A stretch of 55,575 nt of DNA from a virus. Positions within the stretch are counted from its first letter, which is position 1. Every line of letters begins with the position of its first letter. The position numbers and the translations under genes are program-made. The DNA lies in the IMG/VR virus record IMGVR_UViG_3300001765_000143, one strand, 5' to 3'. Of the stretch, positions 1 through 55,575 are shown in pieces. The notes beneath the pieces are model-generated. The model saw only the letters and a list, made by a program, of their open reading frames with translations. It was not told where the DNA came from and did no database searches.

Positions 1-78
1 AGGACTCTATGATTACTATTGAAATGGAAGATCCACAATATGTTGTTGCTACTGATATAAGTGGCTCTCCGACAAGAT
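1..78. repeat. Terminal overlap copy 1: identical to 55498-55575, marking circular closure (unit length 55497 bp)
   Basis: Read directly: both copies are aggactctatgattactattgaaatggaagatccacaatatgttgttgctactgatataagtggctctccgacaagat. Confidence 0.95.
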
Positions 79-353
79 TTAAAACAAACAAGGCTCTTGC
101 GAAAGTAACTATCAGACTTACTCAAACGTCTCCCTCAAATGATTTACTAAGTAGTTATGTTGAGCTAGATAGAATCAGTAATGCAGGTGTTTTTCCGTTG
201 ATGATAAAAGATAATAACGGTACTTCTTTGTTTACTAGTACGGCAGCTTTTGTTGAGCAAGTGCCAAGCGTTGAGTTTGCTAATGAAAACAAAAACCGTG
301 AATGGGTTATTAAAGCCACTAATGTAGCCAAATTTATCGGAGGTCTTAAATGA
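1..353 (+). CDS. Tail tube protein (DUF3277-like), 3' part; the ORF starts at 55425 and crosses the circular junction
   Basis: The frame is continuous with the ATG at 55425 (55425-55497 = -72, same phase as 9). Joined protein MAIKVYDPTQVGVIVGTSPINGFAEDSMITIEMEDPQYVVATD...TIRLTQTSPSNDLLS lies directly after a DUF3383-like sheath gene. Confidence 0.75.
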   Translation, partial: DSMITIEMEDPQYVVATDISGSPTRFKTNKALAKVTIRLTQTSPSNDLLSSYVELDRISNAGVFPLMIKDNNGTSLFTSTAAFVEQVPSVEFANENKNREWVIKATNVAKFIGGLK

Positions 354-724
354 TGACAAAAACAGAAACCAAAGAGATTATGGGTCATAAGTATATTAGT
401 ACCTTATTCCCAGCCATGCAAGGGTATATGCTGGCTAGAAAATTACTTGATATTTTTATCAGTAAAGAACCTATCGCAAAATTATGCGAAGTAGATAAAA
501 ACGGAGAGCTTATACTTGAACTACTTAGCAATACCTTAAGAGACGACCAAGTCATTAATGCTGGAAGTTTTAATAGTATCTATACGGGCAATTACAAGGA
601 AATGATGGGGGCTTTGACATTTGTGTTTGAGGTAAACTTCAAAGATTTTTTAGCGGTAAGCGATACTGGCGAAGGTCTCAATCCCCTCGCGGAAATGATG
701 GCAACAGTATCGCAGAAAGGTTAG
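350..724 (+). CDS. Tail assembly chaperone (short, G-like form)
   Basis: 124-aa ORF between the tube and tape measure genes; its start overlaps the tube stop (aaATGAtg). Confidence 0.6.
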   Translation: MMTKTETKEIMGHKYISTLFPAMQGYMLARKLLDIFISKEPIAKLCEVDKNGELILELLSNTLRDDQVINAGSFNSIYTGNYKEMMGALTFVFEVNFKDFLAVSDTGEGLNPLAEMMATVSQKG

Positions 725-891
725 ATTCGTCTTTAAGCGAAGAATTATTTTTATGGAGACCGGTACTGGAAAAAGTTGTTACTTATACCGAAATTTGCTC
801 CGTTCTATCTTTAAGTGATGTTATGAAGATTAACGATCTATTGGATATGAAAAATGACCTAGAACAAGAGTCTTATCAAAAGAGTAAATAA
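350..891 (+). CDS. Tail assembly chaperone, -1 frameshift extended form (G-T analogue)
   Basis: The -1 frame after 646-652 reads ...FFSGKRYWRRSQSPRGNDGNSIAERLDSSLSEELFLWRPVLEKVVTYTEICSVLSLSDVMKINDLLDMKNDLEQESYQKSK and stops at 889-891, abutting the tape measure ATG at 892. Confidence 0.5.
646..652 (+). promoter_or_regulatory. -1 programmed ribosomal frameshift slippery heptamer T TTT TTA
   Basis: X XXY YYZ heptamer is in phase with ORF 350-724 (codons GAT TTT TTA). The -1 frame is open from 631 to the stop at 889-891. Confidence 0.55.
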
Positions 892-2505
892 ATGATAGCA
901 AGAGAATTATTAGTAAAACTAGGCTTTGATATTGATAGCACTAAATTGGATAAATTTAATGCATCTATTGATGCTACTAAAAACAAAATGCAGGCTATCA
1001 GAAATAGTAGTTTGCAGGGTATTTCTTCCGCAGGGGGAAGTAAATTAGCAAATGCTATTTCTCCCGAGGCAAATAATCGTGTTTCAATTCTCAAAAATTA
1101 TAATGACGAATTAGCCTCGTTATCAAAAAGCGAAAGAGCAGATGTTTTAGCCTTAAACAGGATAGAGAATCAAGCTATCAAGGAAACCACTAAAATAGAA
1201 AAAGCCGAATTAAAAGAACGTCAAAGACTAACTAGAGAAGCGTTTCGAGAAAAACAAAACTTACAAAAATCAGAAGAAACTGGTTTTAAAACTTCTATGG
1301 TGTCTATGTCCTCGGTAGCACGGAAGTTTGCTATTTTAGGAGCTTCAATTACCGCTGGATTTGGTTTAAGTCTGCGATCAACATTAAAGGATGTGGCTAA
1401 TTTTAAAGAAGGTAAGAGTTCAAGTAGTTTTGATAAGAGTCAAATAGCTACTGTTGACTCTTTCGATAGGAGTTTAAATACAACTGGGTCGCTAGTTGCT
1501 AATTTAAGAAATAGTTTTGTAGTGGATATGCTACCAGCTATTAAGGAAATATTAGATATTTTTAATAAATGGCTAACTGAAAATAAAGTTCGTATATTAA
1601 AAAAATTAACAGAAACAGCAGAGGCCATAACAGAAGCTTTTAAAATGCTAAAGATAATACTCTCTCCTGTTTTATCTGCATTTGATTATCTTATTGAAAA
1701 GACTGTTGGTTGGAAAACCCTTATTAAATCTGTGATTGTTTTAGGTGCATCTGCGTGGTTTATGAGATTGGCAGGATCAATATTTATGGTAGCCAGAGCA
1801 TTTAAAACGTTAATGGGAGCAACCGTAATAGGCGGATTTATTTCAAGTTTCAAAACAATCAGAGCTATAGGGATGGTGGGGTGGTTTAAAAGTCTCGCTG
1901 GTCCTATGTTAAGGGTTGCAAATGGTTTTAAGAATTTTCTAAGAGTAAATCTTGTTACAGCTGCTTTGGGTTTGCTTATTGAAGAAATATATCTCACTAT
2001 ACAAGGTGGGGATACTTTGATAAATCGTTTTTTAGAAAGTGAGGCTTGGGATTCCGCTAAAACTAAAATAAAAGGAATAACTGACTCACTAAAAAAAATG
2101 GCCAAAGCTATGGGCATGAGTCAAAAAACCGAGTTTGCTCAGAGAAAGGAGAAAGAAAGGTTATTAAACTACCAGAATAGTGACGGTAAGTTTGGTGAAG
2201 GCAATGTAAAAGTAATTACTTTAGAGAAAAGTTTATTGGGTGCTCCGTTTAAACCGAAACCTGGTTTTAAACCATTATCATTTCCTGAATATGACCCTTT
2301 TGATAGAGGGAGGGATTATATTAGAAACAAGAGTCAACCTAAAGAAAATAATATTAATAATAAAAATTCTGTTGTTTTTAATACGACTGTTAACGTCCCT
2401 GCAGGGACTAATCAAGATCAAGTGTTTAATATTGAAAAAATAGTAAAGAGTCAGCTAGAAAAACAGCAAGAACAACTCTTAGCTACAATTGGGAGTTATA
2501 GGTAA
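892..2505 (+). CDS. Tail tape measure protein
   Basis: 537 aa, immediately after the chaperone pair. Coiled-coil N-terminus and central hydrophobic Gly/Ala-rich segments (AILGASITAGFGLSL, VIVLGASAWFMRLAGSIFMVARAF). Confidence 0.8.
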   Translation: MIARELLVKLGFDIDSTKLDKFNASIDATKNKMQAIRNSSLQGISSAGGSKLANAISPEANNRVSILKNYNDELASLSKSERADVLALNRIENQAIKETTKIEKAELKERQRLTREAFREKQNLQKSEETGFKTSMVSMSSVARKFAILGASITAGFGLSLRSTLKDVANFKEGKSSSSFDKSQIATVDSFDRSLNTTGSLVANLRNSFVVDMLPAIKEILDIFNKWLTENKVRILKKLTETAEAITEAFKMLKIILSPVLSAFDYLIEKTVGWKTLIKSVIVLGASAWFMRLAGSIFMVARAFKTLMGATVIGGFISSFKTIRAIGMVGWFKSLAGPMLRVANGFKNFLRVNLVTAALGLLIEEIYLTIQGGDTLINRFLESEAWDSAKTKIKGITDSLKKMAKAMGMSQKTEFAQRKEKERLLNYQNSDGKFGEGNVKVITLEKSLLGAPFKPKPGFKPLSFPEYDPFDRGRDYIRNKSQPKENNINNKNSVVFNTTVNVPAGTNQDQVFNIEKIVKSQLEKQQEQLLATIGSYR

Positions 2506-2507: not shown

Positions 2508-3248
2508 ATGGCTTCTATTATTGCCCCGCTATTCAAAGCATCAGCCTTCTTTGGTCAAGCTAGCTCTTTATTTAAAGGAGAGACTAAAACTAAAATAGGT
2601 GATCTAGTAATCGATGTATGTACCAAAGAAAATATAAAGTTTAGCTCGACAGTTACTGAGCATCCACTAGAGACCAAAGAGTCGGTTAATGATCATATCT
2701 ATAAAAATCCTCGTAAATTAAGGATTGAGGGATTTATTACAGATTCGCCGCTCCGAGTTTTCGGTTTTATTGAAACCCCTTTACAAAAAAATTCAGTATC
2801 TAGTTTAATTAATAACGTAAAATCATCACTTCCTTTTAATCAGGATGCAAAACCTAGCGTTCTAGCTTATCAGTTGCTCGATCAGCTTTGGCAAGATAGG
2901 GCATTAATTACGGTTGTAACTAGTTTAGACTCTTTTACAAACATGACTATTACCGATTTAGATTCAAACAAAGACCCTGATACGGGAGGTCGTTTTGAGT
3001 TTGTGGTCGAGTTAACTCAACTACAATTCGCCAATGTAACGACTACTAGTAATAATAATTTCAAGAGTACTGCTATTAAATCCATTGCAAGTCCTAAAGA
3101 TCATGTGGGAATAGTAGATAAACCTAAGAGTACGAGTGCTAAAGCTGTAGATTGGATTGCTGAAAAGGGGAAATCTGCTATAAAATTTATAGCCCCTACT
3201 AAGGAAGAATTAAAGAATCCAGGTAATTTGCCTGGTGCTTATATGTGA
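2508..3248 (+). CDS. Tail protein of unknown role (post-tape-measure position)
   Basis: 246-aa ORF starting 3 nt after the tape measure stop; assigned by position only. Confidence 0.4.
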   Translation: MASIIAPLFKASAFFGQASSLFKGETKTKIGDLVIDVCTKENIKFSSTVTEHPLETKESVNDHIYKNPRKLRIEGFITDSPLRVFGFIETPLQKNSVSSLINNVKSSLPFNQDAKPSVLAYQLLDQLWQDRALITVVTSLDSFTNMTITDLDSNKDPDTGGRFEFVVELTQLQFANVTTTSNNNFKSTAIKSIASPKDHVGIVDKPKSTSAKAVDWIAEKGKSAIKFIAPTKEELKNPGNLPGAYM

Positions 3249-3528: not shown

Positions 3529-3879
3529 ATGAGTACAGAAAAAGAACTTAATTATATTCCGTGGTTTGACTCTGATAGCTTTAGACTCAAGGTTATTCTA
3601 GGAGATGAAGATATTTATTACAATTTGGATGCGCAGTATAATATTAGGGGTTCTCATTGGTCGGTTACAATCACGACAGAAAGTGAATTAGTCCTAATAC
3701 AAAATAGAAAGTTAGTAATCGGAGTTGATTTATTTGAAAATTGCTACCATAAGCTAAAACCAAGCTGCTTCCTTTTTCCTTTAACTGACGACGATAGAAT
3801 TACCGCGATCACTCGTGATAATATGATCAACGGCAATGTAAAACTTTTTCAGGTTTTGCAAAGCGATATAGAGGTATAG
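3529..3879 (+). CDS. Baseplate/tail assembly protein (small, pre-hub)
   Basis: 116 aa, position upstream of the hub-like gene; motif HWSVTITTESELVLIQNRKLVIGVDLF resembles small baseplate proteins. Confidence 0.4.
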   Translation: MSTEKELNYIPWFDSDSFRLKVILGDEDIYYNLDAQYNIRGSHWSVTITTESELVLIQNRKLVIGVDLFENCYHKLKPSCFLFPLTDDDRITAITRDNMINGNVKLFQVLQSDIEV

Positions 3880-3882: not shown

Positions 3883-4743
3883 ATGTTATATTTCGATAGA
3901 GTATGTAGGGTTATCATTGAGGGTGCTAAGCTGATCACCATTGAAAACGCTAAGATACAATTTGAGATTATAAAATCAAAGAATGCCAAGGAAAATACGG
4001 CAAAGCTTGAGATTTATAACCTTGCTCCTGTAACCCGCAAGCTAATTACCGAGCAAGAAGCCTTAGTTAGAATCTTTGCAGGTTATGCTCAAAATAAGGG
4101 TCTAATAGAAATAGGACAGGGCGATATCTCTAAGATAAAGCATAACAGAGACAAGACTGAGGTGGTTACTGAGATCTACATGGCTGAGGGCTTGAGAATA
4201 TTTAGAGATAACCCCATAAGTATTAGTTTTTCAAGCGAGTCTAAACTTAAACTCGCAGATGTATTAGATACCATACGAACAAAAAGTAATAATAAATATA
4301 GTTTTAGACTCATAGATGTTGATGAGAGCAAGACTATTGAGAACGGCTATTCTGACCTCGGGTCTCTTGATCAAATACTTAATAATTTAGCTATCCAATT
4401 TGGATTTGGGTGGTCGGTACAGAATAAGATTATTACTATCAAGGGAACTAAGAAATCGCTTAGCTCTGAAATTATGTTACTCACTCCTAAAAATGGCTTA
4501 ATCCTTCACCCAGAATCTGTAAAACAAGTCTCTAGGAGGCTGGAAAAATCCAGTATTACTAAACAAGAGCGGAAGATAAACTCGGTGCAGGCATTACTAC
4601 AACCTCATTTACAAGTTCATGATATTATCGCTATCCAAAGTCAAGACTTGAACGGAAAGTACGAGATACAGAAAATAACTCATAAGGGTGATACTAGAGG
4701 TAATGATTGGTATAGCGACATGGAAGTAATCTCATTGAATTAA
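3883..4743 (+). CDS. Baseplate hub-like protein (XkdQ / late-control-D-like)
   Basis: N-terminal pattern CRVIIEGAKLITIENAKIQFEIIKSKNAKENTAKLEIYNLAPVTRKLI...VRIFAGYAQN is typical of hub proteins; position before the spike. Confidence 0.5.
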   Translation: MLYFDRVCRVIIEGAKLITIENAKIQFEIIKSKNAKENTAKLEIYNLAPVTRKLITEQEALVRIFAGYAQNKGLIEIGQGDISKIKHNRDKTEVVTEIYMAEGLRIFRDNPISISFSSESKLKLADVLDTIRTKSNNKYSFRLIDVDESKTIENGYSDLGSLDQILNNLAIQFGFGWSVQNKIITIKGTKKSLSSEIMLLTPKNGLILHPESVKQVSRRLEKSSITKQERKINSVQALLQPHLQVHDIIAIQSQDLNGKYEIQKITHKGDTRGNDWYSDMEVISLN

Positions 4744-4753: not shown

Positions 4754-5740
4754 ATGAGTAAAGGACAAGCGGAAGTTATTAATGATTTGATGCGGAAGAT
4801 ATCAGACTCCATGAGGGTGGCTATGCCAGCTTCCATCGAGAGCTACGATTTTAAAACACAAAAAGCGGATATAAAGATTGATATGCAAGAGTTATATCAC
4901 AATGGAACAAGCTTAGAATACCCAGTATTATCTGGCGTGCCAGTAATCTTCCCTAGATGCGGTGGTGCTTCAATTACTATGCCTATTGTTAGAGGTGACA
5001 CTTGCTTAGTTATGTTTTTAGATCGTGATAGTACTGCGTGGCTACTGGGCGGTAAGAACTTGAAGCCAAAGAGTATGAGAAGCCATCATTTAAGTGATGC
5101 CGTAGCTATTATGGGCCTCTGTCCTTTTACCAATAAAAGCCCAGCTAAAAATAATACTGATATGCTTATTAGCTTCGATGGTTCAGAAGTTGTATTAAGG
5201 CCGAAAGGAATTATTGATATTACCTCAGCTAAAGAAATAAACGTCAAAACCGAAAGAGTAATAATCAATTGCAAGACTGCTCTTATAAAATCTGAGGAAA
5301 CAGTAGCCGTAGAATGCAAATCGGCTAGCGTCAAAGCTGAAGAAAATATTGCAATTGAATGCAAAATGGCTAATATTAAGGCAACTGAAATTTTAAATGT
5401 TGAATGCAAAACTTTAACTGCAAAAGTTAGTGAGTCTGCATCGGTAGAATGCCAAAATGCTAGTATTAAAGCGACTGGTACTATTAATACAGAAACACCT
5501 AATTTTACTCAAAAAGGTAACATGAAGATAGATGGTATGCTTGAGGTAACTGGTACTAGCTTGCTGACAGGTAAATTAACCAGTCAAAATGGTATAGAGA
5601 ACAGCGGTGCTAACTTAATATCTAATGGGAAAGTGCTTGAGACACATACTCATACATATCAAGATGTTACGACCGTTGTTGCTCCAGATGGTCCATGCAG
5701 CGTTACTAAAGTACCAACGAATTCAGGTCAAACAAATTAA
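4754..5740 (+). CDS. Baseplate spike (gpV / gp138-like) with beta-helical repeat
   Basis: N-terminal OB-like region (PASIESYDFKTQKADIKIDMQ...GVPVIFPR). About 16-aa repeats VAVECKSASVKAEENI / AIECKMANIKATEILN / VECKTLTAKVSESAS / VECQNASIKATGTIN at ~5290-5480. Confidence 0.65.
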   Translation: MSKGQAEVINDLMRKISDSMRVAMPASIESYDFKTQKADIKIDMQELYHNGTSLEYPVLSGVPVIFPRCGGASITMPIVRGDTCLVMFLDRDSTAWLLGGKNLKPKSMRSHHLSDAVAIMGLCPFTNKSPAKNNTDMLISFDGSEVVLRPKGIIDITSAKEINVKTERVIINCKTALIKSEETVAVECKSASVKAEENIAIECKMANIKATEILNVECKTLTAKVSESASVECQNASIKATGTINTETPNFTQKGNMKIDGMLEVTGTSLLTGKLTSQNGIENSGANLISNGKVLETHTHTYQDVTTVVAPDGPCSVTKVPTNSGQTN

Positions 5741-5747
5741 AAATATT

Positions 5748-6104
5748 ATGTTTAAAAAAGACTTATTACTATCTGATAGCCATGATTTAGCAATTATAGA
5801 TTTTGATCTTCAATTGACAAGTGACCAGCAAGCTGTTGCCCAGAGAGTCAAGCAGGCATTGCTCTTATTTAAAGGTGAATGGTTTTTAGATCGAGATTTA
5901 GGCGTACCTTATTATGAAGATATACTAGGTACTAAAAATTCAATTGATACTGTTCGCGGCGTATTTGTAAATGCCATTCGAGCGGTTGATGGAGTCAAAG
6001 ATCTAACAGAGTTCAATATAGAGTTTGATGATGCTACTAGAACTCTTAGCATTAAACTAACTATTATTGATGATTTAAGTAATGAGATAAATATTGAATT
6101 ATGA
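5748..6104 (+). CDS. Baseplate wedge protein (gpW/gp25-like or DUF2634-like)
   Basis: An in-frame ATG at 5748 gives MFKKDLLLSDSHDLAIIDFDLQL...QRVKQALLLFKGEWFLDRDLGVPYY. The track start at 5625 lies inside the spike gene. Confidence 0.6.
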   Translation: MFKKDLLLSDSHDLAIIDFDLQLTSDQQAVAQRVKQALLLFKGEWFLDRDLGVPYYEDILGTKNSIDTVRGVFVNAIRAVDGVKDLTEFNIEFDDATRTLSIKLTIIDDLSNEINIEL

Positions 6105-7531
6105 GCAAACAATACGGATTAACGCCAGAAGGATATAAGACTAAGCCCTTTGATATTATGGTTAAGGAAGTAGAGGAGGCTTTGACAGCTTCACTTGGGA
6201 GCATTAATCTAACTCCTCCTTCTGTATTTTCTGTTTTAATAAATACCTTTTTAATAGAAGTCGCTAAAATTGATTTAAAAGGCGAGGAATTATATAATGC
6301 AAGCTATCCAAATACGGCAACTGGGTACAGTTTAGACGGCATAGCTGATTATAATGGTATAAAGAGACTATCAGCTACTTATTCAACCGTTACAGCTCAA
6401 GTAAGTGCGATTAACTACACTACTATTCCAGAGGGTAGTGAAGTCTTAATAGAAAACACAAATAATATTTTGTTGTTCCCGAGTACTATTACAGTTAATA
6501 ACGAGCAATGCAATTCTATAGTACTTGAGGTGATAGATAATACGCTTCCTGAATATAAAATAATAATAAATAATATCGAATATACCTATGAAAAGCAGCT
6601 TTTAGAAACTACTGTGGATATTGCAGAAGGCTTGAAGTTATTAATTGTCGTAAATACTAGCCTGAGCGTGACTAGGGCAGAGTCTATACTTAACGTAACT
6701 TCAGTTAATTACTTGTCTTTATTTGCTTGTTTTGCTACAGAAGAGATAGAAATTAATAGCTGTACCACTAATGTGGACTTAATTGCAAAAGAAACAGGAG
6801 CAATAGCTGTTCCTGAGAAAAGTGTAACTATTATTCAGACACCTATAGCTGGTTGGATATCGGTTAGTAATCGAGTTGCTGGTTTAACTGGTCGTGATTT
6901 AGAGACTGATATTGAGCTAAGAGCCAGAAGAATAAAATCAATAAAATTCTCTGGCAGTGGAACTGTGGAAGCTATGAGAGCTAGACTACTCAATATAACA
7001 GGTGTAACTTCGGTAAAAATACTTGAGAATGTTACAGATGCGATTGATGTAAATGGGCTACCTCCCAAAAGTTTTGAAGCACTAGTCTTAGGCGGAGCAG
7101 ACTTGGATGTTGCTAAGATGATCTGGCTTGCAAAACCAGCTGGCATAAAAACTTATGGAAATACAGAAATAACTATACTTGATTCAGAAGGTAATAACCA
7201 AATTGTATATTTTTCTAGGTCAATAAAAGTCTATGTCTTTGCTAAAGTAATAATTACAAAAAACAGTGATTTTATTCCTGATTCTATTCCTGCTATAAAG
7301 CAAAATATCGTCAATCAAATATTAAAGGTTGGACTAGGTGAGCCAGTAATATACCAATCTCTCTTTGCAGGGGTTTATGCTGTGGATGGTATTACTAATG
7401 CAAGCATAACAATAGGGGGAACTCTTATAGAGACCGATATACCTGCTCTTGTAGCTGAAAACATAATAGTCTTGCCGTCTCAAATAGTAACAACTGATAT
7501 TAATAAAATCACGATTGAGGTATTAGTGTGA
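6101..7531 (+). CDS. Baseplate J-like protein
   Basis: 476 aa, ATGA overlap with the upstream gene; size and position after the W-like gene. Confidence 0.65.
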   Translation: MSKQYGLTPEGYKTKPFDIMVKEVEEALTASLGSINLTPPSVFSVLINTFLIEVAKIDLKGEELYNASYPNTATGYSLDGIADYNGIKRLSATYSTVTAQVSAINYTTIPEGSEVLIENTNNILLFPSTITVNNEQCNSIVLEVIDNTLPEYKIIINNIEYTYEKQLLETTVDIAEGLKLLIVVNTSLSVTRAESILNVTSVNYLSLFACFATEEIEINSCTTNVDLIAKETGAIAVPEKSVTIIQTPIAGWISVSNRVAGLTGRDLETDIELRARRIKSIKFSGSGTVEAMRARLLNITGVTSVKILENVTDAIDVNGLPPKSFEALVLGGADLDVAKMIWLAKPAGIKTYGNTEITILDSEGNNQIVYFSRSIKVYVFAKVIITKNSDFIPDSIPAIKQNIVNQILKVGLGEPVIYQSLFAGVYAVDGITNASITIGGTLIETDIPALVAENIIVLPSQIVTTDINKITIEVLV

Positions 7532-8268
7532 ACACCGAGCCACTACCAGAACCTGAAAATCATTTACAAGCAATCAAGAGCTATGATTTAGAGCAATATA
7601 AAGAGAGTGTTGTTCTATCATCTTTGACCAAAGCTCTGATAACTCAACTGCAACGAGTGGAAGACACTTTTTTAGATTTAGAGTTAAAGAGATTTATCTC
7701 AAGCGCATTTGGTTACACATTAGACCTGATGGGCAGTATTGTTGGGGACTCTCGTAATTTTAAAAACGATAATGATTACCGCACTGCCATTTTGATAAGA
7801 GCCTTGATCAATAACGGCGGCGGCACTCCTGAGGATATCATTTCGGCAATTAGAATACTCTATGCCCCAAGGAAAATAGAATATAGTGAGACATATCCCG
7901 CTAATTTTTGTTTGTTCATACAAGCTAGCAAACTTGTTCCCCCAGCAATAGACCTTGGTTTATTGAATATAAGAAGTTTAATAAACGGGGTAAAACCAAT
8001 GGGCGTGGGTGAATTTATTGTCACAGCTAGTAGCGGGGACAATCTATTTAGATTCAGTGAATCTACCAGCGAATTAGTGAATTTTATTGTAGATTTACCT
8101 CCAGCAGAAAAGCTTGAGGCTAATGAGATTGCTGAAATCTCGGAAGTATTAACAGAAGCAGATACAATATCTTTCTCTATTGGGAGTTTTGGATTTGGAG
8201 AGTTTATATTAACATCAAAAGCCGTAGTTGGCGGCGGAACTTTAGCAGAGGTCATCAATTATGCCTGA
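7528..8268 (+). CDS. Baseplate/tail-fibre adaptor (gpI / DUF2612-like)
   Basis: GTG start overlapping the J stop; motif FGYTLDLMGSIVGDSRNFKND. Confidence 0.5.
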   Translation: MNTEPLPEPENHLQAIKSYDLEQYKESVVLSSLTKALITQLQRVEDTFLDLELKRFISSAFGYTLDLMGSIVGDSRNFKNDNDYRTAILIRALINNGGGTPEDIISAIRILYAPRKIEYSETYPANFCLFIQASKLVPPAIDLGLLNIRSLINGVKPMGVGEFIVTASSGDNLFRFSESTSELVNFIVDLPPAEKLEANEIAEISEVLTEADTISFSIGSFGFGEFILTSKAVVGGGTLAEVINYA

Positions 8269-8617
8269 ACCAGTAAAACCGATATTCCCGAGATGGGCCA
8301 GTTTAGAAATAGAAAACCCCACTAATCATGAGCTTAATGTTTATGAGCCGTCTGAACAAAAAAAAGATTTAGGCTGGGATTTAAACGAAGTACCTCCTAG
8401 GCAACATTTTAATTGGCTAGCTCGTCAAACTAATCAGGTCTTGGAGTATCATGATTATCATCTAAATCGTCCTAAGATTTATACTATTGCTACATTACCG
8501 CCAGCTGTTGATAATATTGCTCAAATAGTATTTGTAAGTGATTCTGGCGGAGGAATACTTGCGTATAGTAACGCCGTGGTATGGAAAAATATAACAACTG
8601 GCAACGTGGTATCATAG
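8261..8617 (+). CDS. Tail fibre-associated protein (fibre N-terminal/collar-like)
   Basis: Motif DLGWDLNEVPPRQHFNWLARQTNQVLEY is typical of fibre N-terminal regions. Confidence 0.45.
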   Translation: MPEPVKPIFPRWASLEIENPTNHELNVYEPSEQKKDLGWDLNEVPPRQHFNWLARQTNQVLEYHDYHLNRPKIYTIATLPPAVDNIAQIVFVSDSGGGILAYSNAVVWKNITTGNVVS

Positions 8618-11471: not shown

Positions 11472-11499
11472 ATTCCTATTTAGTTCATATTCTTTATCT

Positions 11500-12063: not shown

Positions 12064-12086
12064 AAATAATCCATTTAAAAGTCTAC

Positions 12087-14942: not shown

Positions 14943-14944
14943 AA

Positions 14945-36429: not shown

Positions 36430-36430
36430 A

Positions 36431-45889: not shown

Positions 45890-45914
45890 TACTAATAAAT
45901 ACTATATATAGATC

Positions 45915-46187: not shown

Positions 46188-46189
46188 TA

Positions 46190-46336
46190 ATGAAAAAGTT
46201 TAGTCCATTAATCACAATAAAAGAGAAAACAGCAAATAGTCCTGCCGAATTCTTAGAACTTATGACCAGCGAGTCATTGGAAATTGACGAAGATGTATAT
46301 GCTCTCCTACAAGCCTTAAATGATGAGGTGTTATAA
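46190..46336 (+). CDS. 48-aa ORF (below the track cutoff), N-terminal paralogue of 45915-46187
   Basis: MKKFSPLITIKEKTANSPAEFLELMTSESLEIDEDVYALLQALNDEVL; its stop overlaps ATG 46336. Confidence 0.3.
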   Translation: MKKFSPLITIKEKTANSPAEFLELMTSESLEIDEDVYALLQALNDEVL

Positions 46337-48538: not shown

Positions 48539-48739
48539 ATGAAGGATGTAAATAGCGTGAATGATATAGCAAAAATTTTACAACTTCTGCCAAAATATAC
48601 GCAAGCATTGAATAATGATAGCGTTTTATATTTTTCGGACGAAGAGGCGATGGCTAGTCCTGAACGTAAGGTTTTGGTAGTTAAAGATATAATGATGATC
48701 GAAGAATTGCTTACGTATCTAAAGAAAAGCTTAGCTTAA
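48539..48739 (+). CDS. Hypothetical protein
   Basis: 66-aa ORF with SD gagagg. Confidence 0.4.
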   Translation: MKDVNSVNDIAKILQLLPKYTQALNNDSVLYFSDEEAMASPERKVLVVKDIMMIEELLTYLKKSLA

Positions 48740-48760: not shown

Positions 48761-49600
48761 ATGTATAAATTAGGCTTGCTAGTTACTCTTCCTACAACTG
48801 CAAAGCTTAGGTATGAGGAGTATTTACTAGATCTAGTTAGAAAAGTTAGTTTTCTTATAAAGAAAACGTTAGTTATTGATGGTGTTTTTACGGAAGATTA
48901 TAAGAAACTCACAAGAACTGACAATGATTTTAATTATGATTTTGAGAATATAATTAAACTTATCGAAGCTAAAATAGTTTCTGAATTACATCTTTTCTTT
49001 AAAAAAATCACTCGTGCCGCTGTTATTACAGAGAAATTTAATTATAAGGCCGTTGAAAAGTCATTAAACGGCGTCAAGAAATCAATCCCTACTCTAAGGA
49101 ATGCTAAAGTTCAGAGTGAGATGAAGATGTGGGTATCCGAGAATGTAAGATTAATAAAAACAATCCCAGAGAAAATGCTCACTCAAGTTGAAGAGATTGT
49201 ATACACAGCTGTTAGAGCTGGCGTGACCCATACAGAACTTAGTAAAAGATTAGTTGAGTCTTTTGGTATATCTAAAAGAAGAGCCGTTATTATCGCAAGG
49301 GATCAGATCAATAAACTAAGTGGCAACCTAACAAGAGTAAGAAATTTAGAGCTAGATATTGATGAATATAAATGGCTAACAAGTAGGGATGATAGATGCA
49401 GACCTTCTCACAAAGTACTAGAAGGCAAGATTTGTTCTTGGGAAGATGTTAATGTGTACAAGTCTGTTGATAAATCAGTGGATAAAGATGTGGATAACTC
49501 AAGAAAATGGTTGCAACGCTCGTCAATAGGCGGTACAATATCTCATCCGTCTCAAGATGTGCTATGTAGATGCACATCTATTCCAATCATAAAAATCTAA
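48761..49600 (+). CDS. Head morphogenesis protein (SPP1 gp7 / Mu F-like)
   Basis: ARDQINKLSGNLTRVRNLELDIDEYKWLTSRDDRCRPSHKVLEGKI. Confidence 0.8.
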   Translation: MYKLGLLVTLPTTAKLRYEEYLLDLVRKVSFLIKKTLVIDGVFTEDYKKLTRTDNDFNYDFENIIKLIEAKIVSELHLFFKKITRAAVITEKFNYKAVEKSLNGVKKSIPTLRNAKVQSEMKMWVSENVRLIKTIPEKMLTQVEEIVYTAVRAGVTHTELSKRLVESFGISKRRAVIIARDQINKLSGNLTRVRNLELDIDEYKWLTSRDDRCRPSHKVLEGKICSWEDVNVYKSVDKSVDKDVDNSRKWLQRSSIGGTISHPSQDVLCRCTSIPIIKI

Positions 49601-49650: not shown

Positions 49651-50820
49651 ATGCTTGAAACTTCTATCGCCACTCCAATTATCATAAAAAGATTTGATAC
49701 TTTTAAACTACCGAAAGTCGCTAAGACTAAAGAAGGGTATTTAAGAGGCGAAGTAGTAGCAAGTCGTTCTGGGGTATTTGAATATAGAAATGTTGACGGA
49801 TCTATAAGAAGAGAATTACGTCATCCTGATGAAGTATTTAAACCCAATAGTTTAGACACTCTTAAAATGATACCTGTGACTGACGATCATCCGTCTGACT
49901 TTGTTGATTCTAGTAATGCCGATAAATTACAAGCAGGCTACACGGGAGAGAATTGGAAGATAGACGGTGCAAATATTATTGTATCACTCACTGTAACTAA
50001 AAAAGATGCTGTTCATAAAATTACGTCAGGTAAAAAAGCAGCGTTATCTTTGGGATATTCAACCGTATTAATTAGAGAAGATGGGGTCTATAACGGCGAG
50101 AGATATGACTATAAGCAAACAGAGATTGTATATAATCACTTAGCCTTAGTTGAAGAAGGAAGAGCAGGAATAGCAGCAAGATTTAGAATGGATGGCAAAG
50201 ACATAGATTCTAATATTGCAGAATGTCATTTCGATCATGTAATAAACAATGTAATTAACAATAAAGAGGTCAAAATGTCTAATAACGAGACAGCAGATAA
50301 AGTAGAAAATAACGATTCTGTAGAAGTATTAAAAGTAAGATTTGATGCTTCTATTATAGAAAAGGAGTTATTAAAAGATAGGTTAACTCAGAGCGAGTTA
50401 AAAGTTGACGCATTAGAAAAGTCATTAATTAAAGCTAATGAAGACCTAGCAAACGAAAAGAAAAAGAATGATCCTGAAGTTAGAGCAAGGGAAACTATGG
50501 ATAGAGTAGAGATGCTGGCAAGATCAGCTCCTTATATTGATATAGAGGCCTATATTCATCATGATGCTAGGGATGTAATGATTGCCGCAATTAACTCCGA
50601 CCGTACTGAATCTATTAACTTTAATGACAAAAGTGACGAATATGTAAAAGGTATGTTTGAGACTTTAATCGGTGCAAGTTACAAAGCCGATAAAATAGAT
50701 ACTAAAGCGGTATTTGGAGTACTTGCTCAAAAATGTGATACATCAAGAGTAAGAACACCTTCAAGTGACTTATTTAAACAACTTGATGATAGATATAACA
50801 ACGTAAATATAGGTAAATAA
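49651..50820 (+). CDS. DUF2213-like prohead scaffold/protease protein
   Basis: GYLRGEVVASRSGVFEYRNVDGSIRRELRHPDEVFKPNSLDTLKMIPVTDDHP; coiled-coil C-terminal half. Confidence 0.7.
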   Translation: MLETSIATPIIIKRFDTFKLPKVAKTKEGYLRGEVVASRSGVFEYRNVDGSIRRELRHPDEVFKPNSLDTLKMIPVTDDHPSDFVDSSNADKLQAGYTGENWKIDGANIIVSLTVTKKDAVHKITSGKKAALSLGYSTVLIREDGVYNGERYDYKQTEIVYNHLALVEEGRAGIAARFRMDGKDIDSNIAECHFDHVINNVINNKEVKMSNNETADKVENNDSVEVLKVRFDASIIEKELLKDRLTQSELKVDALEKSLIKANEDLANEKKKNDPEVRARETMDRVEMLARSAPYIDIEAYIHHDARDVMIAAINSDRTESINFNDKSDEYVKGMFETLIGASYKADKIDTKAVFGVLAQKCDTSRVRTPSSDLFKQLDDRYNNVNIGK

Positions 50821-50821: not shown

Positions 50822-51391
50822 ATGCAAATAGATTACTCAAACTCTTTAGATTCAGGACCATTAGTATTGGGTCAAGTATACGATGTTAGTCTTGCTCAAG
50901 TAGACGGATATATGGCTGAAGAAAGTATACCTTTTGGTGCTTTTGTACAAAACGGTACTTCTGTTGTTGCAAGTCAGAGTACATCCGCTCCTCTTGTAAA
51001 AAAACTTACGACAACGGGAAGATTCATCGGTATAGCAGTTAGAGATATGAATCAACCAGTAGGCGCTACTCTTGCCACCGCTACTCAAGTGGCAGCAGGG
51101 ACTGTTGATGCAATGACTACAATTACAACAGCACTTGAGTCCTATCCTATAGGAGCTGGTGTCTCAGTTATGAGATTAGGGAGGGTGTCGATTATGATTC
51201 CGACAGGAACAGTAATGACTAATGCAGCAATAGGAGCAACCTTAGTATGGAATGCTACAACATCTGCAATGACTTTTTCGGCTCTACCGATTTCTCCTGA
51301 AGTACTAGCGACAGCTGTTAATATAGGAGTTATGGTAACTATGCCAGTTGCTGGGCAACTAGCGGTTGTTCAAATTAATGAATTAGTATAA
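50822..51391 (+). CDS. Head structural/decoration protein candidate
   Basis: 189 aa, Ala/Thr/Val-rich, between the scaffold and capsid genes. Confidence 0.4.
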   Translation: MQIDYSNSLDSGPLVLGQVYDVSLAQVDGYMAEESIPFGAFVQNGTSVVASQSTSAPLVKKLTTTGRFIGIAVRDMNQPVGATLATATQVAAGTVDAMTTITTALESYPIGAGVSVMRLGRVSIMIPTGTVMTNAAIGATLVWNATTSAMTFSALPISPEVLATAVNIGVMVTMPVAGQLAVVQINELV

Positions 51392-51404: not shown

Positions 51405-52361
51405 ATGACAATAATAAAATTTACTTCTCCAAATTATGGTAGAGAAGTGTCGTCTAGGGTTGATGCTAATGCAAGTGTGTTTTTTGCAAATATGCTCACA
51501 ATGTTCGACCCAAAAATATTTGAAACTATCAAAACACCATTGACAGCTTTTGATATTTTTAAAGTAAAACAAGTTGCCGAACATTTAAAAATTTATACAT
51601 ACAATATGTATGAAGGTTTTGGTAAATCAAAATATGCCTCAACTAAAACAGGCAAGAATAATGATATGCCTTATGTAAGTGTTAATGGTCAACAATACTC
51701 ATCAAAAATAGATGATGTTTATTGTGCTTTAGCTTTTAGTAGAGCCGATTTAGCTGCTTCACAAGCAACTCAGTTTGATGTTGTTACGGCCTTGCAAAGA
51801 CAAGCATGGCGTTCAAATTATGAGGCGATGAATAGAACTTGCTTTTTTGGCAACAAAGAAGTTGGACTTGGTGGATTACTTAATAATCCTTTTGTTAAAG
51901 GTGCTAATGCAGAAGCTGCCGTAACGAATGATTGGTCTTCAAGCGCAACTACGGCTCAAATGATTTATGATGATTTGCTAAAAGCTTATAATACAATCTT
52001 AGACAGTACTAGAGGGAACTTAATGCCTAACATAATGTTATGCTCTCCTGGTGTATATAATATCTTAAGTAAAAAGATTTTTAATACTTATAACGGACTA
52101 ACTATAAAGGAACAATTCGAGGGAGATAATACTATTACACTAAAATCTTGCCCTGAATTAAGACAAGTATTTACAGGTACTAAAGACGGTTTTGTTCTAT
52201 TAAACAACGATTCTGATTATATAGAACATATTGTATCAGAATTATTTACGGTGTTACCTCCTGAGAAAAAAGGTTTAGAGTTTGAATCTTTATGTGTTTC
52301 TAGGCATGGTGGGCTAGTTATTAGGCAGCCTTTATCAATTTGTATTAGACGTATGGTTTAA
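51405..52361 (+). CDS. Major capsid protein (DUF2184-like)
   Basis: 318 aa, position after the DUF2213-like gene. Confidence 0.7.
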   Translation: MTIIKFTSPNYGREVSSRVDANASVFFANMLTMFDPKIFETIKTPLTAFDIFKVKQVAEHLKIYTYNMYEGFGKSKYASTKTGKNNDMPYVSVNGQQYSSKIDDVYCALAFSRADLAASQATQFDVVTALQRQAWRSNYEAMNRTCFFGNKEVGLGGLLNNPFVKGANAEAAVTNDWSSSATTAQMIYDDLLKAYNTILDSTRGNLMPNIMLCSPGVYNILSKKIFNTYNGLTIKEQFEGDNTITLKSCPELRQVFTGTKDGFVLLNNDSDYIEHIVSELFTVLPPEKKGLEFESLCVSRHGGLVIRQPLSICIRRMV

Positions 52362-52653: not shown

Positions 52654-52998
52654 ATGGAATTAATTGACAGATTTAAACTAATAGCTGACGAATTTGCTAA
52701 TGAGCCCATTGATTTTTTAAATGGGCACTTAGCTTTATCTTCTGAGTATGTAGGACAACATATTAATCAGCCATTAAGAGATGAATTGATTGCATATCTT
52801 GCAGCGCATAGAGTAGATCAGTCTCTAAAGAGAAGAGGGGCTAGCGGTCAAGTCACTTCTGTAAAAGAAGGAAACTTGGCAATTACGTATTCTACAAGCG
52901 ATGCAGAATCTGAGTATGATTTTTCAAGTTATGGAAGAACATATAAACAGTTAGTTAAAGAGATTTTTATAGCTCCTATGACAAGAATGTGTAGATGA
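52654..52998 (+). CDS. Head-tail connector protein (DUF4054-like)
   Basis: FKLIADEFANEP...DELIAYLAAHRVDQSLKRRGASGQVTSVKEGNLAITYS. Confidence 0.55.
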   Translation: MELIDRFKLIADEFANEPIDFLNGHLALSSEYVGQHINQPLRDELIAYLAAHRVDQSLKRRGASGQVTSVKEGNLAITYSTSDAESEYDFSSYGRTYKQLVKEIFIAPMTRMCR

Positions 52999-53459
52999 AA
53001 GATATAGATAAAGGGTTTAAAGACGTCTTAAAGAAATTACAAATGTTGCAAAGCAAAACTTTACAAGTTGGTATTTTAAGTGATGCAGGAGTTAACGAAA
53101 AAACTGGTACTTTAATTGCAGATTATGCTCACTTTAACGAGTTTGGGACAAAACATATACCTGCTCGTTCTTTTATCGGTAGTACATGTGATGAGCAGTC
53201 TAAAAAATGGGAAGCAATGAAAGATGAGATTGTTGACAAAATAATCGATGACCCATCAGCTAACGTTGAACAATTAATAGGATTACTTGGTGAGCAGGTT
53301 GTAGCGGATATTAAAGAAAAAATAACAAGCGATATTTCCCCTGAAAATAGTCCAAGTACTATTTATCGCAAAACTAAAGGTAAGATGGATAAAACAACAA
53401 CCTTAATAGATACTGCAAATATGCGTGATGCTATCAATTTTAAAATAGTAGATAAATGA
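52995..53459 (+). CDS. HK97 gp10-like head-tail joining protein
   Basis: ADYAHFNEFGTKHIPARSFI motif. Confidence 0.65.
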   Translation: MKDIDKGFKDVLKKLQMLQSKTLQVGILSDAGVNEKTGTLIADYAHFNEFGTKHIPARSFIGSTCDEQSKKWEAMKDEIVDKIIDDPSANVEQLIGLLGEQVVADIKEKITSDISPENSPSTIYRKTKGKMDKTTTLIDTANMRDAINFKIVDK

Positions 53460-53824
53460 TATTTGATATTTTTAGAAGAAATCTAACTGTCAAAAGATTA
53501 GAACAGGGGTCATATCAAAACGTTGATGGATTAACTCTATGGATGGATGGAGCTGAGAGCAGTTTTACAATAAAAGCAAGCGTACAGGGAGTAGATAATG
53601 AGGTATTACAGACCCTGCCAGAAGGCGATAGAACAAAAGAAATGTATGTTTTATATACCAGCACAGAGCTAAGAACAGTTACTGCTGGAGTCTCTAACCC
53701 TGATATAGTGATTATAGATAATAAAGAATATCAAGTAATAAGAGTGACTTCAAGGCATAACTTATCAACTTATGCAACTGCGCATTATGAAATAGTAGTA
53801 ATAAAAATAATTACAATGGCGTAA
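53456..53824 (+). CDS. Neck/tail completion protein candidate
   Basis: 122-aa ORF, ATGA overlap; assigned by position. Confidence 0.4.
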   Translation: MIFDIFRRNLTVKRLEQGSYQNVDGLTLWMDGAESSFTIKASVQGVDNEVLQTLPEGDRTKEMYVLYTSTELRTVTAGVSNPDIVIIDNKEYQVIRVTSRHNLSTYATAHYEIVVIKIITMA

Positions 53825-54339
53825 TGGAAATTAGAGAACTTTATAGTAAAATACAAAATTTCACTTCTATTGCATGTAATTTATCAATTGAAGATGTGGT
53901 TATAGAAAATCAACGTAAGCCAAGAGATATAAAGCCTTATATATCTTTTTATTTAGGTAATTTTCGTTTAGTTAGCCAACCAATCATTCGAGAATTAGAT
54001 GCAAATGGAATGCAAACTATTGTTACTCCTACAGTATGTACAGTAAATTTTAAAGCAGTGAGTGATAAGCTACTTGAAGCGGAAATTTTATTACATAGCT
54101 TACGTAATGCTTTTAATACAGAGTTACAAAACTCTATATTTAATGGAGAGATTGCCTTACATCGTGTTTTAAAAACTGTATCTGCAATACCGACTGTAGT
54201 TGATGAACAAATAGAAAGCAGAGCTATATTGGCTTTAGAATTAAGTTTTAACGTTACAATAGAAGATAACGTAGGCCTTATTGAGCATTTGCATCTTACA
54301 GACGTACGGTTGAATAAAGAATATATTATAAACAAATAG
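53824..54339 (+). CDS. Tail terminator/sheath-proximal protein candidate
   Basis: 171-aa ORF directly upstream of the sheath gene. Confidence 0.4.
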   Translation: MEIRELYSKIQNFTSIACNLSIEDVVIENQRKPRDIKPYISFYLGNFRLVSQPIIRELDANGMQTIVTPTVCTVNFKAVSDKLLEAEILLHSLRNAFNTELQNSIFNGEIALHRVLKTVSAIPTVVDEQIESRAILALELSFNVTIEDNVGLIEHLHLTDVRLNKEYIINK

Positions 54340-54348
54340 AGAATTAAT

Positions 54349-55398
54349 ATGCCCCTGATAGATAATTACATTAATATTAATATTACAAGAGGAAAGTTAG
54401 GAGTTAACTCTTCCTCGTTAAATACCTTATTAATTATTGGCGATACCAAGAAAGCGGTAGCAGAAAGTACATTACCGTTAGTAAAGTCTTACGGCAGTTT
54501 AGCAGAAGTTGCAGTTGATTATACCAATACGGCTAACCCTGAATATAAGGCAGCATCTTCATATTTTGGCCAAGATGTAAAACCTACAAAACTACTGATC
54601 GGAAGAGTAATAGGCACGCAACAGACCGATACTTTTGCAGCGGCTTATCCAAAAATTACTTTAGCAAATAATGATTTTTACGGTGTTGTCATAACAAGTA
54701 AAGTAGAAGCCGATCAATTAGCAATAGTAGCATTGGTAGAAGCTGATAATAAGATTTTTGGGGTTTCTAATGAAAATGCAATAATGCTAGATGGAGGAGA
54801 TGCTAATAGTCTGGCTTATAAAATAAAGGCCTTAAATGCCTTGCGTACTCATGTTACGTATAATGGATTAGCAGCTAATACTTACCCAGAAGCCGCATGG
54901 ACTGGCAAAATGTTCTCTAAAGACGCAGGATCTGCTACTTGGGCATATAAAAATTTAAGCGGCGTTGTAGCAGACAAACTAACAAGTAGCAACGTTACAG
55001 GCTTGCAAACCAATAACTGTAATTTCTATGTTTCATTTGGCGGCGTAGATTCCATGTTTGATGGAAAAACGGCAGTAGGCGAGTTTATTGATATCGTACA
55101 AGGAAGCGACTGGTTAACAGCTAATATGCAGGCTAAAATTGCCAATGCTTTTTTAAATACCGATAAAATTCCCATGACCAATCAAGGTATCGGTATCTTA
55201 GAGAATATGGTAAGAGCATCTTTAAACGAGGCTTCCGAGAGGAACATTATTGATCAGCAAAGTATCAAAGTAACCGTACCTGATGTTTTAGCTGTTACTC
55301 CAGCGGATAGATTGGCTAGAAAAATAAATATTAGTTTCGAGGCGCGCCTTAGCGGAGCTATACATATAGTTGGTATTAAAGGGACGGTCTCAGTATAA
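54349..55398 (+). CDS. Tail sheath-like protein (DUF3383-like)
   Basis: MPLIDNYININITRGKLGVNSSSLNTLLIIGDTKKA...; 349 aa, followed by the DUF3277-like tube gene. Confidence 0.75.
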   Translation: MPLIDNYININITRGKLGVNSSSLNTLLIIGDTKKAVAESTLPLVKSYGSLAEVAVDYTNTANPEYKAASSYFGQDVKPTKLLIGRVIGTQQTDTFAAAYPKITLANNDFYGVVITSKVEADQLAIVALVEADNKIFGVSNENAIMLDGGDANSLAYKIKALNALRTHVTYNGLAANTYPEAAWTGKMFSKDAGSATWAYKNLSGVVADKLTSSNVTGLQTNNCNFYVSFGGVDSMFDGKTAVGEFIDIVQGSDWLTANMQAKIANAFLNTDKIPMTNQGIGILENMVRASLNEASERNIIDQQSIKVTVPDVLAVTPADRLARKINISFEARLSGAIHIVGIKGTVSV

Positions 55399-55424
55399 AA
55401 TAATAAATATATAGGTAAATTATT

Positions 55425-55575
55425 ATGGCTATAAAAGTATACGATCCTACTCAAGTGGGTGTGATTGTTGGAACATCGCCAATAAATGGCTTTGCAGAGG
55501 ACTCTATGATTACTATTGAAATGGAAGATCCACAATATGTTGTTGCTACTGATATAAGTGGCTCTCCGACAAGAT
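55425..55575 (+). CDS. Tail tube protein (DUF3277-like), 5' part; continues at nt 79 (through the duplicated 78 nt) to 353
   Basis: ATG at 55425 gives MAIKVYDPTQVGVIVGTSPINGFAEDSMITIEMED... Confidence 0.75.
   Translation, partial: MAIKVYDPTQVGVIVGTSPINGFAEDSMITIEMEDPQYVVATDISGSPTR
55498..55575. repeat. Terminal overlap copy 2 (identical to 1-78)
   Basis: Read directly. Confidence 0.95.

Follow-up and report, generated by a model that had tools for sequence, protein, structure and literature searches.

How does a phage persist in its host when it carries a plasmid partition locus beside a full set of virion genes and no recognizable integrase? The question is raised by IMG/VR virus record IMGVR_UViG_3300001765_000143, a stretch of 55,575 nt (hereafter the window) with a GC content of 33.4%. 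We conclude that the window is most likely a complete 55.5-kb genome, that of a temperate phage with a contractile tail whose host, Megaira, Rickettsia, or another closely related member of the Rickettsiaceae, lives within a eukaryotic cell. The gene content suggests that the phage probably persists as a low-copy circular plasmid instead of integrating. A first-pass annotation had labeled it a phage-plasmid; the virion set, the partition (par) cassette, and the lack of integration machinery were all recovered here, and extrachromosomal maintenance is what these genes suggest.

For the analysis, 79 open reading frames (ORFs) of at least 60 aa were extracted, and all 79 were scanned with Pfam, as concatenates. 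PHROGs was run on 57 of the 79 (47 non-structural and 10 structural), and NCBIfam on 10 ORFs of no assigned family.

Completeness of the genome

The longest exact match between the beginning and the end of the window is 78 nt, and the unit length is accordingly 55,497 bp. The tail tube ORF (55425 to 353) reads through the junction without interruption, and its 141-aa translation matches the KPP10_Orf10 tail-tube family in Pfam. A contig from a separate assembly, ENA ERZ2286749 NODE_57429 (L158; 1,554 bp, ~2x coverage), aligns colinearly and gap-free, with 99.8% identity, to positions 54,265–55,818 of the circle, that is, from the sheath gene across the 55,497/1 junction to window position 321, and the tube gene called in it begins at the same start (window position 55425). 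Closure is, therefore, not merely an assembler artefact. Since a fixed physical end within the essential tube gene is implausible, the molecule should be either circular or circularly permuted. The overlap, the 55,497-bp circle, and the junction-spanning tube ORF had all been proposed in the first-pass annotation and stand.

Other near-identical pieces (99.8–100%) were found in Logan SRR931349 (L001 and L003) and in JGI 3300028549 (L002), which places the same phage in at least four datasets. No host DNA was found in the window or in these four near-identical independent contigs (L001–L003 and L158).

A partition cassette of the Rickettsia-plasmid type

The par locus comprises three genes, namely a divergent gene for a 59-aa RHH protein (RHH59), parA, and a gene for an 82-aa RHH protein (RHH82). 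ParA possesses the deviant Walker A motif NQKGGVGKTT and, at 214 aa, no N-terminal DNA-binding HTH; its best solved structure is TP228 ParF (4dzz), matched over the full length with an E of 1.9e-30. Identity to the ParA encoded by the Rickettsia massiliae plasmid pRMA is 81%; at the nucleotide level, identity to seven Rickettsia plasmids is 77–80%. The RHH82 ORF begins 4 nt past the parA stop and is ~50% identical to the ORF downstream of pRMA parA; its counterpart in pRRH carries a CopG-family annotation, and the matches of RHH82 to CopG-type RHH proteins in the PDB are weak only. RHH59 is 58% identical to the equally placed, parA-divergent 59-aa ORF of pRMA. A 60-aa ORF at 28281-28463 (-) was rejected as a shadow of the real gene upstream of parA, which lies at 28309-28488 (+) and is also called in contigs L003 and L160–L163.

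The sequence ACATATATATGC occurs four times in the whole window, where 0.64 copies would be expected by chance, and all four lie at 27077–28148. Two of them form a perfect 14+14-nt palindrome (28120–28149), one stands just before the parA start, and one right after the RHH82 stop. In plasmid pRMA, CATATATATG lies on either side of the operon; compared by this core and not by the exact 12-mer, two sites flank the pRMA cassette versus four in the window. The boxes are probable centromere or operator sites. Because homologous genes in the same order and a related box recur in pRMA, the whole cassette with these sites can be regarded as a Rickettsia-plasmid cassette, and to judge from its three ORFs and four boxes it is intact. 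The first-pass annotation had listed a type-Ib ParA, an RHH adaptor, and palindromic boxes, for which we now have the TP228 ParF match, an RHH_5 match of 24 bits (below the cut-off), and the perfect palindrome.

ParA copies at 81–94% identity are common in metagenomes, mostly without other genes of this phage, and the cassette is found alone on many metagenome contigs and also on unrelated plasmids. A 41-kb element (L160) has it in the same context as the window, with 84% nucleotide identity and a ParA at 94%: the replication genes, a CCDC90-like gene, and RHH59 lie on one side, and parA, RHH, ankyrin, YqaJ, and RecT genes on the other. In L003, par is joined to the ankyrin, YqaJ, and Sie genes of the window at 100% identity. 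The nearest ParAs among GenBank phages (39–46%) are those of the plasmid prophages VP882, vB_VpaM_MAR, VP585, and phiHAP-1.

Relatives and host

The only described Rickettsiaceae phage that we found in the literature is a podovirus of Megaira. This is MAnkyphage_25.80 (OP381185.1), a 38,448-bp circular record (Megaira polyxenophila, Cryptomonas SAG 25.80) described in George et al. 2023 (Curr Biol), as cited by PMC10925606. Seventeen of the 79 window proteins are found in it, colinear and at 28–70% identity. On the lysis side these are the ORFs at 11634-11906 and 11815-12099, a 62-aa ORF (15093-15281), and the endolysin; among the early genes, RecT (70%), YqaJ (57%), the N-terminus of the ankyrin protein, the winged-helix regulator, and the CCDC90-like protein; in the replication region, both replication-module proteins, the 195-aa protein, and a 66-aa ORF (37139-37339); and among the late genes, TerS (62%), the patatin, the fiber N-terminus, and a 66-aa ORF (48539-48739). 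The TerL, portal, capsid, and tail of the window have no match in OP381185.1. In the window, the par cassette occupies the control region from which the regulator/recombination arm and the replication arm diverge; the MAnkyphage regulator and CCDC90-like gene are separated by ~170 bp, whereas the window holds the par cassette and the Sie-like genes exactly there.

Could such a mosaic result from misassembly, with a Rickettsiaceae plasmid (par and replication genes) joined through repeats to an unrelated myovirus? An inverted repeat (left arm 21170–21412, right arm 36564–36814), in which 86 nt at 100% and 157 nt at 83% are separated by an 8-nt indel, lies within two Tad2-like paralogues and encloses the 15-kb regulation/par/replication segment. 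Logan contig L001 starts inside its right arm, and 29,661–36,790 falls outside every independent contig fetched, as a chimera would allow. Such a chimera is nonetheless far-fetched: the early region is colinear with MAnkyphage, from lysis genes through RecT, regulator, and replication genes to TerS; single IMG/VR contigs join this TerL/portal type to early genes (the homologue of the gene at 35543, RuvC, HTH_3, Tad2, and the methyltransferase); and L003 ties par to its neighbors. Because inversion of the 15-kb segment keeps gene polarity consistent, the segment may occur in either orientation, or one may have been picked by the assembly; the given orientation agrees with MAnkyphage and L160.

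As to the host, the window TerL lineage (50–93% identity) was found only in metagenomes and in two very-many-contig assemblies (GCA_013565735.1 and GCA_020047415.1), which are taken to be eukaryote genome projects; IMG/VR relatives of 52–57 kb have the same order of portal, repeat protein, patatin, and fiber genes. The nearest TerLs in species-representative genomes, at 40–45% identity, belong to two Rickettsiaceae metagenome-assembled genomes (MAGs). Homologues of the 515-aa protein of the replication module occur in MAnkyphage (47%), the Megaira chromosome CP113867.1 (49%), and Rickettsiaceae MAG contigs (50%), and its C-terminal part is 39% identical to a gene on Megaira plasmid pPCS148. 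The match of the cassette to pRMA, the synteny with MAnkyphage, the TerLs of the Rickettsiaceae MAGs, and the homologues in Megaira plasmids and chromosome together point to a host in the Rickettsiaceae, among which these data fit Megaira, Rickettsia, or a relative equally well. The intracellular alphaproteobacterial host guessed in the first-pass annotation is thereby narrowed to this family; the described relative, MAnkyphage, and the three-gene par cassette common to Rickettsia plasmids go beyond it.

Two related sequences deserve mention in their own right. The Megaira polyxenophila chromosome CP113867.1 holds, at 1,441,455–1,462,924 (L147), the 515-aa homologue, a patatin gene, and a MAnkyphage-type Terminase_6N TerL among three group II intron-type reverse-transcriptase genes; these prophage-like remnants indicate that MAnkyphage-like DNA is present in a Megaira chromosome. 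A relative with a 53% identical TerL (L007 and the 55,104-bp contig of P0033) encodes type I-F Cas proteins (Csy2-4), a small resolvase, DnaB, and the Rickettsia-specific DUF2671 and DUF2674, and is possibly a CRISPR-bearing phage or element of Rickettsiales.

Absence of integration machinery

None of the 79 ORFs was hit in Pfam by PF00589, PF00239, PF07508, or a protelomerase. PHROGs identified no integrase among the 47 non-structural and 10 structural ORFs, nor did NCBIfam find a recombinase in its 10. Six-frame tblastn, for which the queries were an rve integrase, several transposases, the VP882 protelomerase, and four small serine recombinases taken from relatives, MAnkyphage among them, recovered only a 30-aa Transposase_mut remnant. 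The VP882 protelomerase matched nothing in the window better than E 0.08 by tblastn and phmmer, and the VP882 Rep showed no similarity to it. No unannotated gap exceeds 560 bp, which leaves no space for an overlooked integrase. For five IMG/VR relatives (partial genomes), the ORFs checked by Pfam in the 10 kb preceding TerL included no integrase, and no integrated copy was seen in species-representative genomes. The first-pass annotation had likewise reported no recombinase or protelomerase, and the three Pfam families that it had named for checking gave zero hits; its two short transposase-like fragments correspond to the IS1595 C-terminal ORF and the Transposase_mut remnant.

A temperate phage may still integrate through an unrecognized recombinase, or by host XerCD or homologous recombination (RecT/RecE, or shared insertion sequences [IS] or repeats). 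One might look for such an enzyme in the large ORFs without assigned function (13389-14954, 30011-31147, and 32310-33857), and MAnkyphage-like genes in the Megaira chromosome, related ParA-bearing elements that adjoin housekeeping-type genes, and the IS remnants of the window would agree with integration. We regard it as improbable because Pfam, PHROGs, NCBIfam, and the six-frame searches gave no recombinase signal; the modeled 515-aa protein is a winged helix with small alpha/beta domains and has no significant fold match, recombinases included (best E 0.0077); an E. coli-type dif-like site is lacking (a weak test for Rickettsiaceae); and the window and its four near-identical contigs are free of host DNA.

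Replication genes

A plasmid also needs to replicate, and the candidates are the 378-aa and 515-aa proteins, whose replication role we infer from their position directly upstream of the helicase, their conservation, and a link to DnaA-like domains. Residues ~35–131 of the 515-aa protein form a winged helix that is confidently modeled by AlphaFold, and this N-domain is homologous (BLASTP E 1e-8; hhalign 95.8%, E 7e-9) to the N-domain of the "DnaA-like" proteins with which it was compared (from pPCS148, pRMA, and the metagenomic element L153). In the rickettsial-plasmid DnaA-like proteins, the C-terminus is a DnaA_N domain. In the 515-aa protein, the C-terminal half is modeled as a pair of small alpha/beta domains for which the PDB offers no significant match, and the protein belongs to no Pfam, PHROGs, or NCBIfam family. 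The 378-aa protein is 36% identical over 103 aa to a MAnkyphage gene annotated "replication initiator protein" and otherwise gives weak winged-helix signals only.

GC content is lowest at 26000–30000 (0.28), and the cumulative GC skew has its minimum at ~27–28 kb, at the divergent par region. This would suit an origin, but just as well the change of gene orientation there; because the minimum follows gene orientation, it should not be read as an origin. Promoters and terminators predicted across the par and replication genes were no more numerous than in shuffled sequence.

Mode of maintenance

The intact cassette, the closed genome, and the missing integration machinery make a low-copy plasmid prophage the reading that we favor, and the HTH_3 and M78 proteins, as temperate-type regulators, support it. 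Several observations weigh against it and should be kept in mind. The plasmid state is read from gene content and circular closure, and a circular assembly is equally expected for circularly permuted or terminally redundant virion DNA. The cassette is mobile, being found alone on many metagenome contigs, and could be a recent passenger. The C-terminal RHH of RHH82 (RHH_5, E 3e-5, 24 bits) falls just under the 26-bit cut-off. The initiator assignments are weak: the 515-aa model (pLDDT 64) retrieves no PDB fold at E ≤ 0.001 (best 0.0077), and the single-sequence model of the 378-aa protein is unusable (pLDDT 38). The ParA-bearing relatives L150 and L151 are on contigs with housekeeping-type genes; these contigs may be chromosomal, or large plasmids like pPCS148, a large Megaira plasmid that carries a similar SpoT-like/HD-domain gene beside an MFS transporter. 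Lastly, the 515-aa homologue next to prophage remnants in the Megaira chromosome indicates that relatives can become integrated.

An alternative is a virulent phage or transient carrier with no stable plasmid prophage, in which a recently captured par cassette at most evens out replicating genomes within a slow-growing intracellular host. The occurrence of the cassette on many unrelated contigs and plasmids, its absence from the same locus in MAnkyphage, the silence of a circular assembly on lifestyle, and the lack of a confidently identified CI/Cro/antirepressor switch all speak for this account. We think it unlikely, because the cassette is intact in its three ORFs and four boxes, because L160 keeps it in the same context at 84% nucleotide identity, and because typical prophage cargo (two Sie-like proteins, a restriction-modification [R-M] pair, an ankyrin protein, the repressor-type HTH_3, and M78) is found alongside.

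Under the favored reading, that of a plasmid prophage, the genome would circularize on entry, and replication would be fired from the early region by the winged-helix initiator-like proteins and the SF2 helicase. In the quiescent state, the HTH repressor would silence the late genes, RHH82 would bind the boxes and stimulate ParA so that the copies segregate, the methyltransferase and HNH endonuclease would form an addiction module that penalizes loss, and other phages would be excluded by the two Sie-like proteins. Induction might come through the M78 (ImmA-like) peptidase or another signal that relieves repression, and the patatin would probably help to cross or disrupt membranes.

Gene annotation

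The coordinates of the features are collected in Table 1. No tRNA genes were found in the 55,575-nt window.

Table 1. Annotated features of the window, with the basis for each call
Feature	Coordinates	Strand	Basis or remark
Terminal overlap	1..78		= 55498-55575; gives a circle, or a circular permutation, of 55,497 bp
Tail assembly chaperone (TAC)	350-724	+	Pfam/PHROGs
Tape measure	892-2505	+	Pfam/PHROGs
Dit-like	2508-3248	+	Pfam/PHROGs
Pam3 gp18-like plug	3529-3879	+	Pfam/PHROGs
Hub	3883-4743	+	Pfam/PHROGs
gp138_N spike	4754-5740	+	Pfam/PHROGs
Wedge	5745-6104	+	Pfam/PHROGs
Baseplate J	6101-7531	+	Pfam/PHROGs
DUF2612	7528-8268	+	Pfam/PHROGs
Fiber proteins	8261-8617, 8619-10184	+	Pfam/PHROGs
M78 (ImmA/IrrE-like) metallopeptidase	10983-11510	-	Pfam
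Small lysis-associated ORF with lipobox	11634-11906		MAnkyphage homologue
Small lysis-associated ORF	11815-12099	-	MAnkyphage homologue
Endolysin	12087-12539	+	Pfam/PHROGs; MAnkyphage homologue
RuvC-like resolvase	12744-13259	+	Pfam/PHROGs
Transposase_mut remnant, 30 aa	17260-17349		Six-frame tblastn
HNH_2 restriction-endonuclease-like	17443-18432	-	Pfam; NCBIfam weak restriction-endonuclease matches
C5 cytosine methyltransferase	18422-19477	-	Pfam
IS1595 C-terminal ORF, 122 aa	19474-19842	-	Pfam; covers only last third of profile
RecT-like annealase	20313-21146	-	PHROGs; 70% to MAnkyphage
Tad2-like protein	21249-21554	-	Pfam/PHROGs
HTH_3 Cro/CI-type regulator	21754-21999	-	Pfam
YqaJ/RecE-like exonuclease	22231-22938	-	Pfam/PHROGs; 57% to MAnkyphage
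Ankyrin-repeat protein	23973-24941	-	Pfam
Sie-like membrane-anchored OB-fold protein	25038-25943	-	Pfam/PHROGs
Winged-helix regulator	26083-26379	-	Homologous to MAnkyphage "transcription regulator"
RHH82 gene, 82 aa	27089-27337	-	RHH_5 E 3e-5
parA, 214 aa	27342-27986	-	Pfam AAA_31, CbiA; phrog_164 ParA-like
Boxes	27077-27088; 28015-28026; palindromic pair 28120-28149		12-mer count
RHH-like 59-aa gene (RHH59)	28309-28488	+	58% to pRMA ORF
Second Sie-like OB-fold membrane protein	28542-29453	+	Pfam/PHROGs
CCDC90-like coiled-coil membrane protein	29458-29856	+	Pfam/PHROGs; conserved in MAnkyphage, L160
378-aa winged-helix protein	30011-31147	+	MAnkyphage synteny
515-aa protein	32310-33857	+	N-domain common to DnaA-like proteins of rickettsial plasmids
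SF2 helicase	33854-35512	+	Pfam/PHROGs
Conserved 195-aa protein	35543-36130	+	MAnkyphage synteny
GapR	36157-36429	+	Pfam E 7e-23
TerS (DUF5681)	37448-37882	+	Pfam; 62% identical to MAnkyphage TerS
TerL (Terminase_3 + 3C)	37876-39174	+	Pfam; unrelated to MAnkyphage TerL
Portal	39171-40601	+	Pfam; unrelated to MAnkyphage portal
Collagen-like PKDGxDG repeat proteins, two overlapping ORFs	40618-41463, 41402-42619	+	Repeats
Patatin-like phospholipase	42612-43649	+	Pfam E 8e-26
747-aa fiber-like protein	43646-45889	+	PHROGs
608-aa fiber or decoration-like protein	46336-48162	+	PHROGs
MuF-like	48761-49600	+	Pfam
DUF2213	49651-50820	+	Pfam
Cement protein (E217 gp24 / Pam3 gp6)	50822-51391	+	Pfam
Major capsid protein	51405-52361	+	Pfam; ≤26% identity to any GenBank phage
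DUF4054	52654-52998	+	Pfam
E217 gp28-like collar	53456-53824	+	Pfam
Neck terminator	53824-54339	+	Pfam
Tail sheath (DUF3383 / E217 gp31 type)	54349-55398	+	Pfam E 1.4e-32
Tail tube, 5' part	55425-55575, continuing 79-353	+	KPP10_Orf10

The late genes occupy the + strand from 37.4 kb across the junction to 10.2 kb. Pfam and PHROGs together recovered a full myovirus set with lysis genes, such that virion, packaging, and lysis functions reside on one replicon, and every function that had been assigned from inspection (packaging, head, neck, sheath/tube, baseplate, fiber, and lysis) was found. These genes are distant from those of known phages: the maximum identity to any GenBank phage is 38% for TerL, 26% for the major capsid protein, and 33–39% for the sheath, and megablast of the 18-kb structural half against GenBank phages returned no match.

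The block between the portal and MuF genes (40618–48162) has been kept in the lineage and has the same order in L005, L061–L069, and the Rickettsiaceae MAG L010. Its two overlapping repeat ORFs (40618–42619) correspond to one ORF of 589–628 aa in relatives (L005 and L007), which means that the gene is split in the window, through programmed frameshifting or through a frameshift that is either genuine or an error of sequencing. A patatin gene is part of the late operon throughout the lineage (L005, L010, L061–L069, L147, and L157), right after the portal or TerL gene, and takes this place also in the podovirus MAnkyphage and a Rickettsiaceae MAG; such conservation suggests a virion-associated or exit/entry function and not random cargo.

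Among the cargo genes, the HNH_2 and C5 methyltransferase genes overlap by 11 nt and are likely a type II R-M pair, which could serve an episome as its addiction system. The neighboring IS1595 C-terminal ORF may be a conserved small gene instead of a dead fragment. L160 possesses, at 17936–18307, a 123-aa counterpart of it (34% identity) in the equivalent position beside a methyltransferase gene. The two Sie-like genes (25038-25943 and 28542-29453) encode paralogous membrane-anchored, tRNA_anti-like OB-fold proteins that flank the par cassette and match the PHROG "superinfection exclusion Sie-like"; L160 lacks the pair. Proteins with a Tad2-like (Thoeris anti-defense) domain are encoded at 21249–21554 and 36431–36841, and the shorter looks like a frameshifted copy of the longer.

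Implications

Phage-plasmids as such, a Megaira phage, and Wolbachia plasmids discussed as possible phage-plasmids (PMC9560607) were already known. New here is a complete contractile-tailed Rickettsiaceae phage that is mosaic with MAnkyphage, lacks a recombinase, and carries a Rickettsia-plasmid par cassette. The case is evenly balanced on whether it is also the first complete autonomous Rickettsiaceae phage-plasmid, an episomal myovirus that uses a Rickettsia-plasmid centromere and partition module.

Finding such a phage in at least four datasets means that the diversity of Rickettsiaceae tailed phages exceeds what has been described. Two virion types share one early region, which implies that phage modules are exchanged between them, and the 81% ParA identity with Rickettsia plasmids shows direct plasmid-phage exchange in these bacteria. 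For Rickettsiaceae, a survey of cif loci from 2025 reported RAGE-type conjugative and other mobile elements, not WO prophage (PMC12445526).

If the episomal reading is true, it would connect the gene pools of plasmids and phages in obligate intracellular bacteria, and bacteria that are very hard to manipulate genetically would have a natural transducing or shuttle backbone. Maintenance as a plasmid would extend phage-plasmids to obligate intracellular bacteria, make cassette and phage candidates for genetic tools, and provide a possible source of incompatibility with native plasmids.

Comparison with known phages and plasmids

The virion belongs with the E217, Pam3, and KPP10-type myoviruses, with which the window shares the sheath, tube, cement, collar (E217 gp28), plug (Pam3 gp18), neck terminator, and baseplate J; the likeness of the virion genes is at family level only. 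MAnkyphage and the window are both low in GC, circular as records, and from a Rickettsiaceae host, but MAnkyphage, a podovirus, has a 38.4-kb genome, tail tubular proteins of the T7 type, and a TerL of the Terminase_6N family, whereas the window has 55.5 kb, a contractile tail, and a Terminase_3 TerL. MAnkyphage also has a gene for a small serine recombinase ("resolvase"), which lies between those for TerS and TerL and is lacking in the window; it further carries a RelE/RHH toxin-antitoxin pair but is devoid of a par cassette.

The cassette resembles those of the Rickettsia plasmids (the pRMA, pRRH, and pRAM18 group) and the TP228 ParF/ParG type Ib systems in its ParA, its small downstream gene for a putative RHH protein, its divergent upstream gene for a 59-aa RHH-like protein, and its flanking CATATATATG-type boxes. 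In the Rickettsia plasmids it is carried on replicons of 13–18 kb and in the window on a phage genome; its function is predicted from sequence in both.

Known phage-plasmids include P1, the telomere phages N15, VP882, and phiHAP-1, and the parABS-carrying cluster A mycobacteriophages. Like these, the window combines a tailed phage with a plasmid partition system and has no integrase. Lacking a protelomerase and a VP882-type Rep, it is not a linear-plasmid telomere phage, and the ParB and RepA types of P1 are not found in it. The virion genes of these phages are unrelated to those of the window, and the host group differs, that of the window being the obligate intracellular Rickettsiaceae.

Within the Rickettsiales, the Wolbachia plasmids pWCP and pWALBA carry ParA-like and ParG-like genes, some together with a few phage-like genes, and their authors have raised the idea of a phage-plasmid (PMC9560607). 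These plasmids are 9–21 kb in size and, unlike the window, do not possess a full virion set. Phage WO is the other known contractile-tailed phage of Rickettsiales, and it too carries ankyrin genes. It integrates by means of a large serine recombinase (PMC12445526), whereas the window encodes none, and its structural genes are of the E217/Pam3 type.

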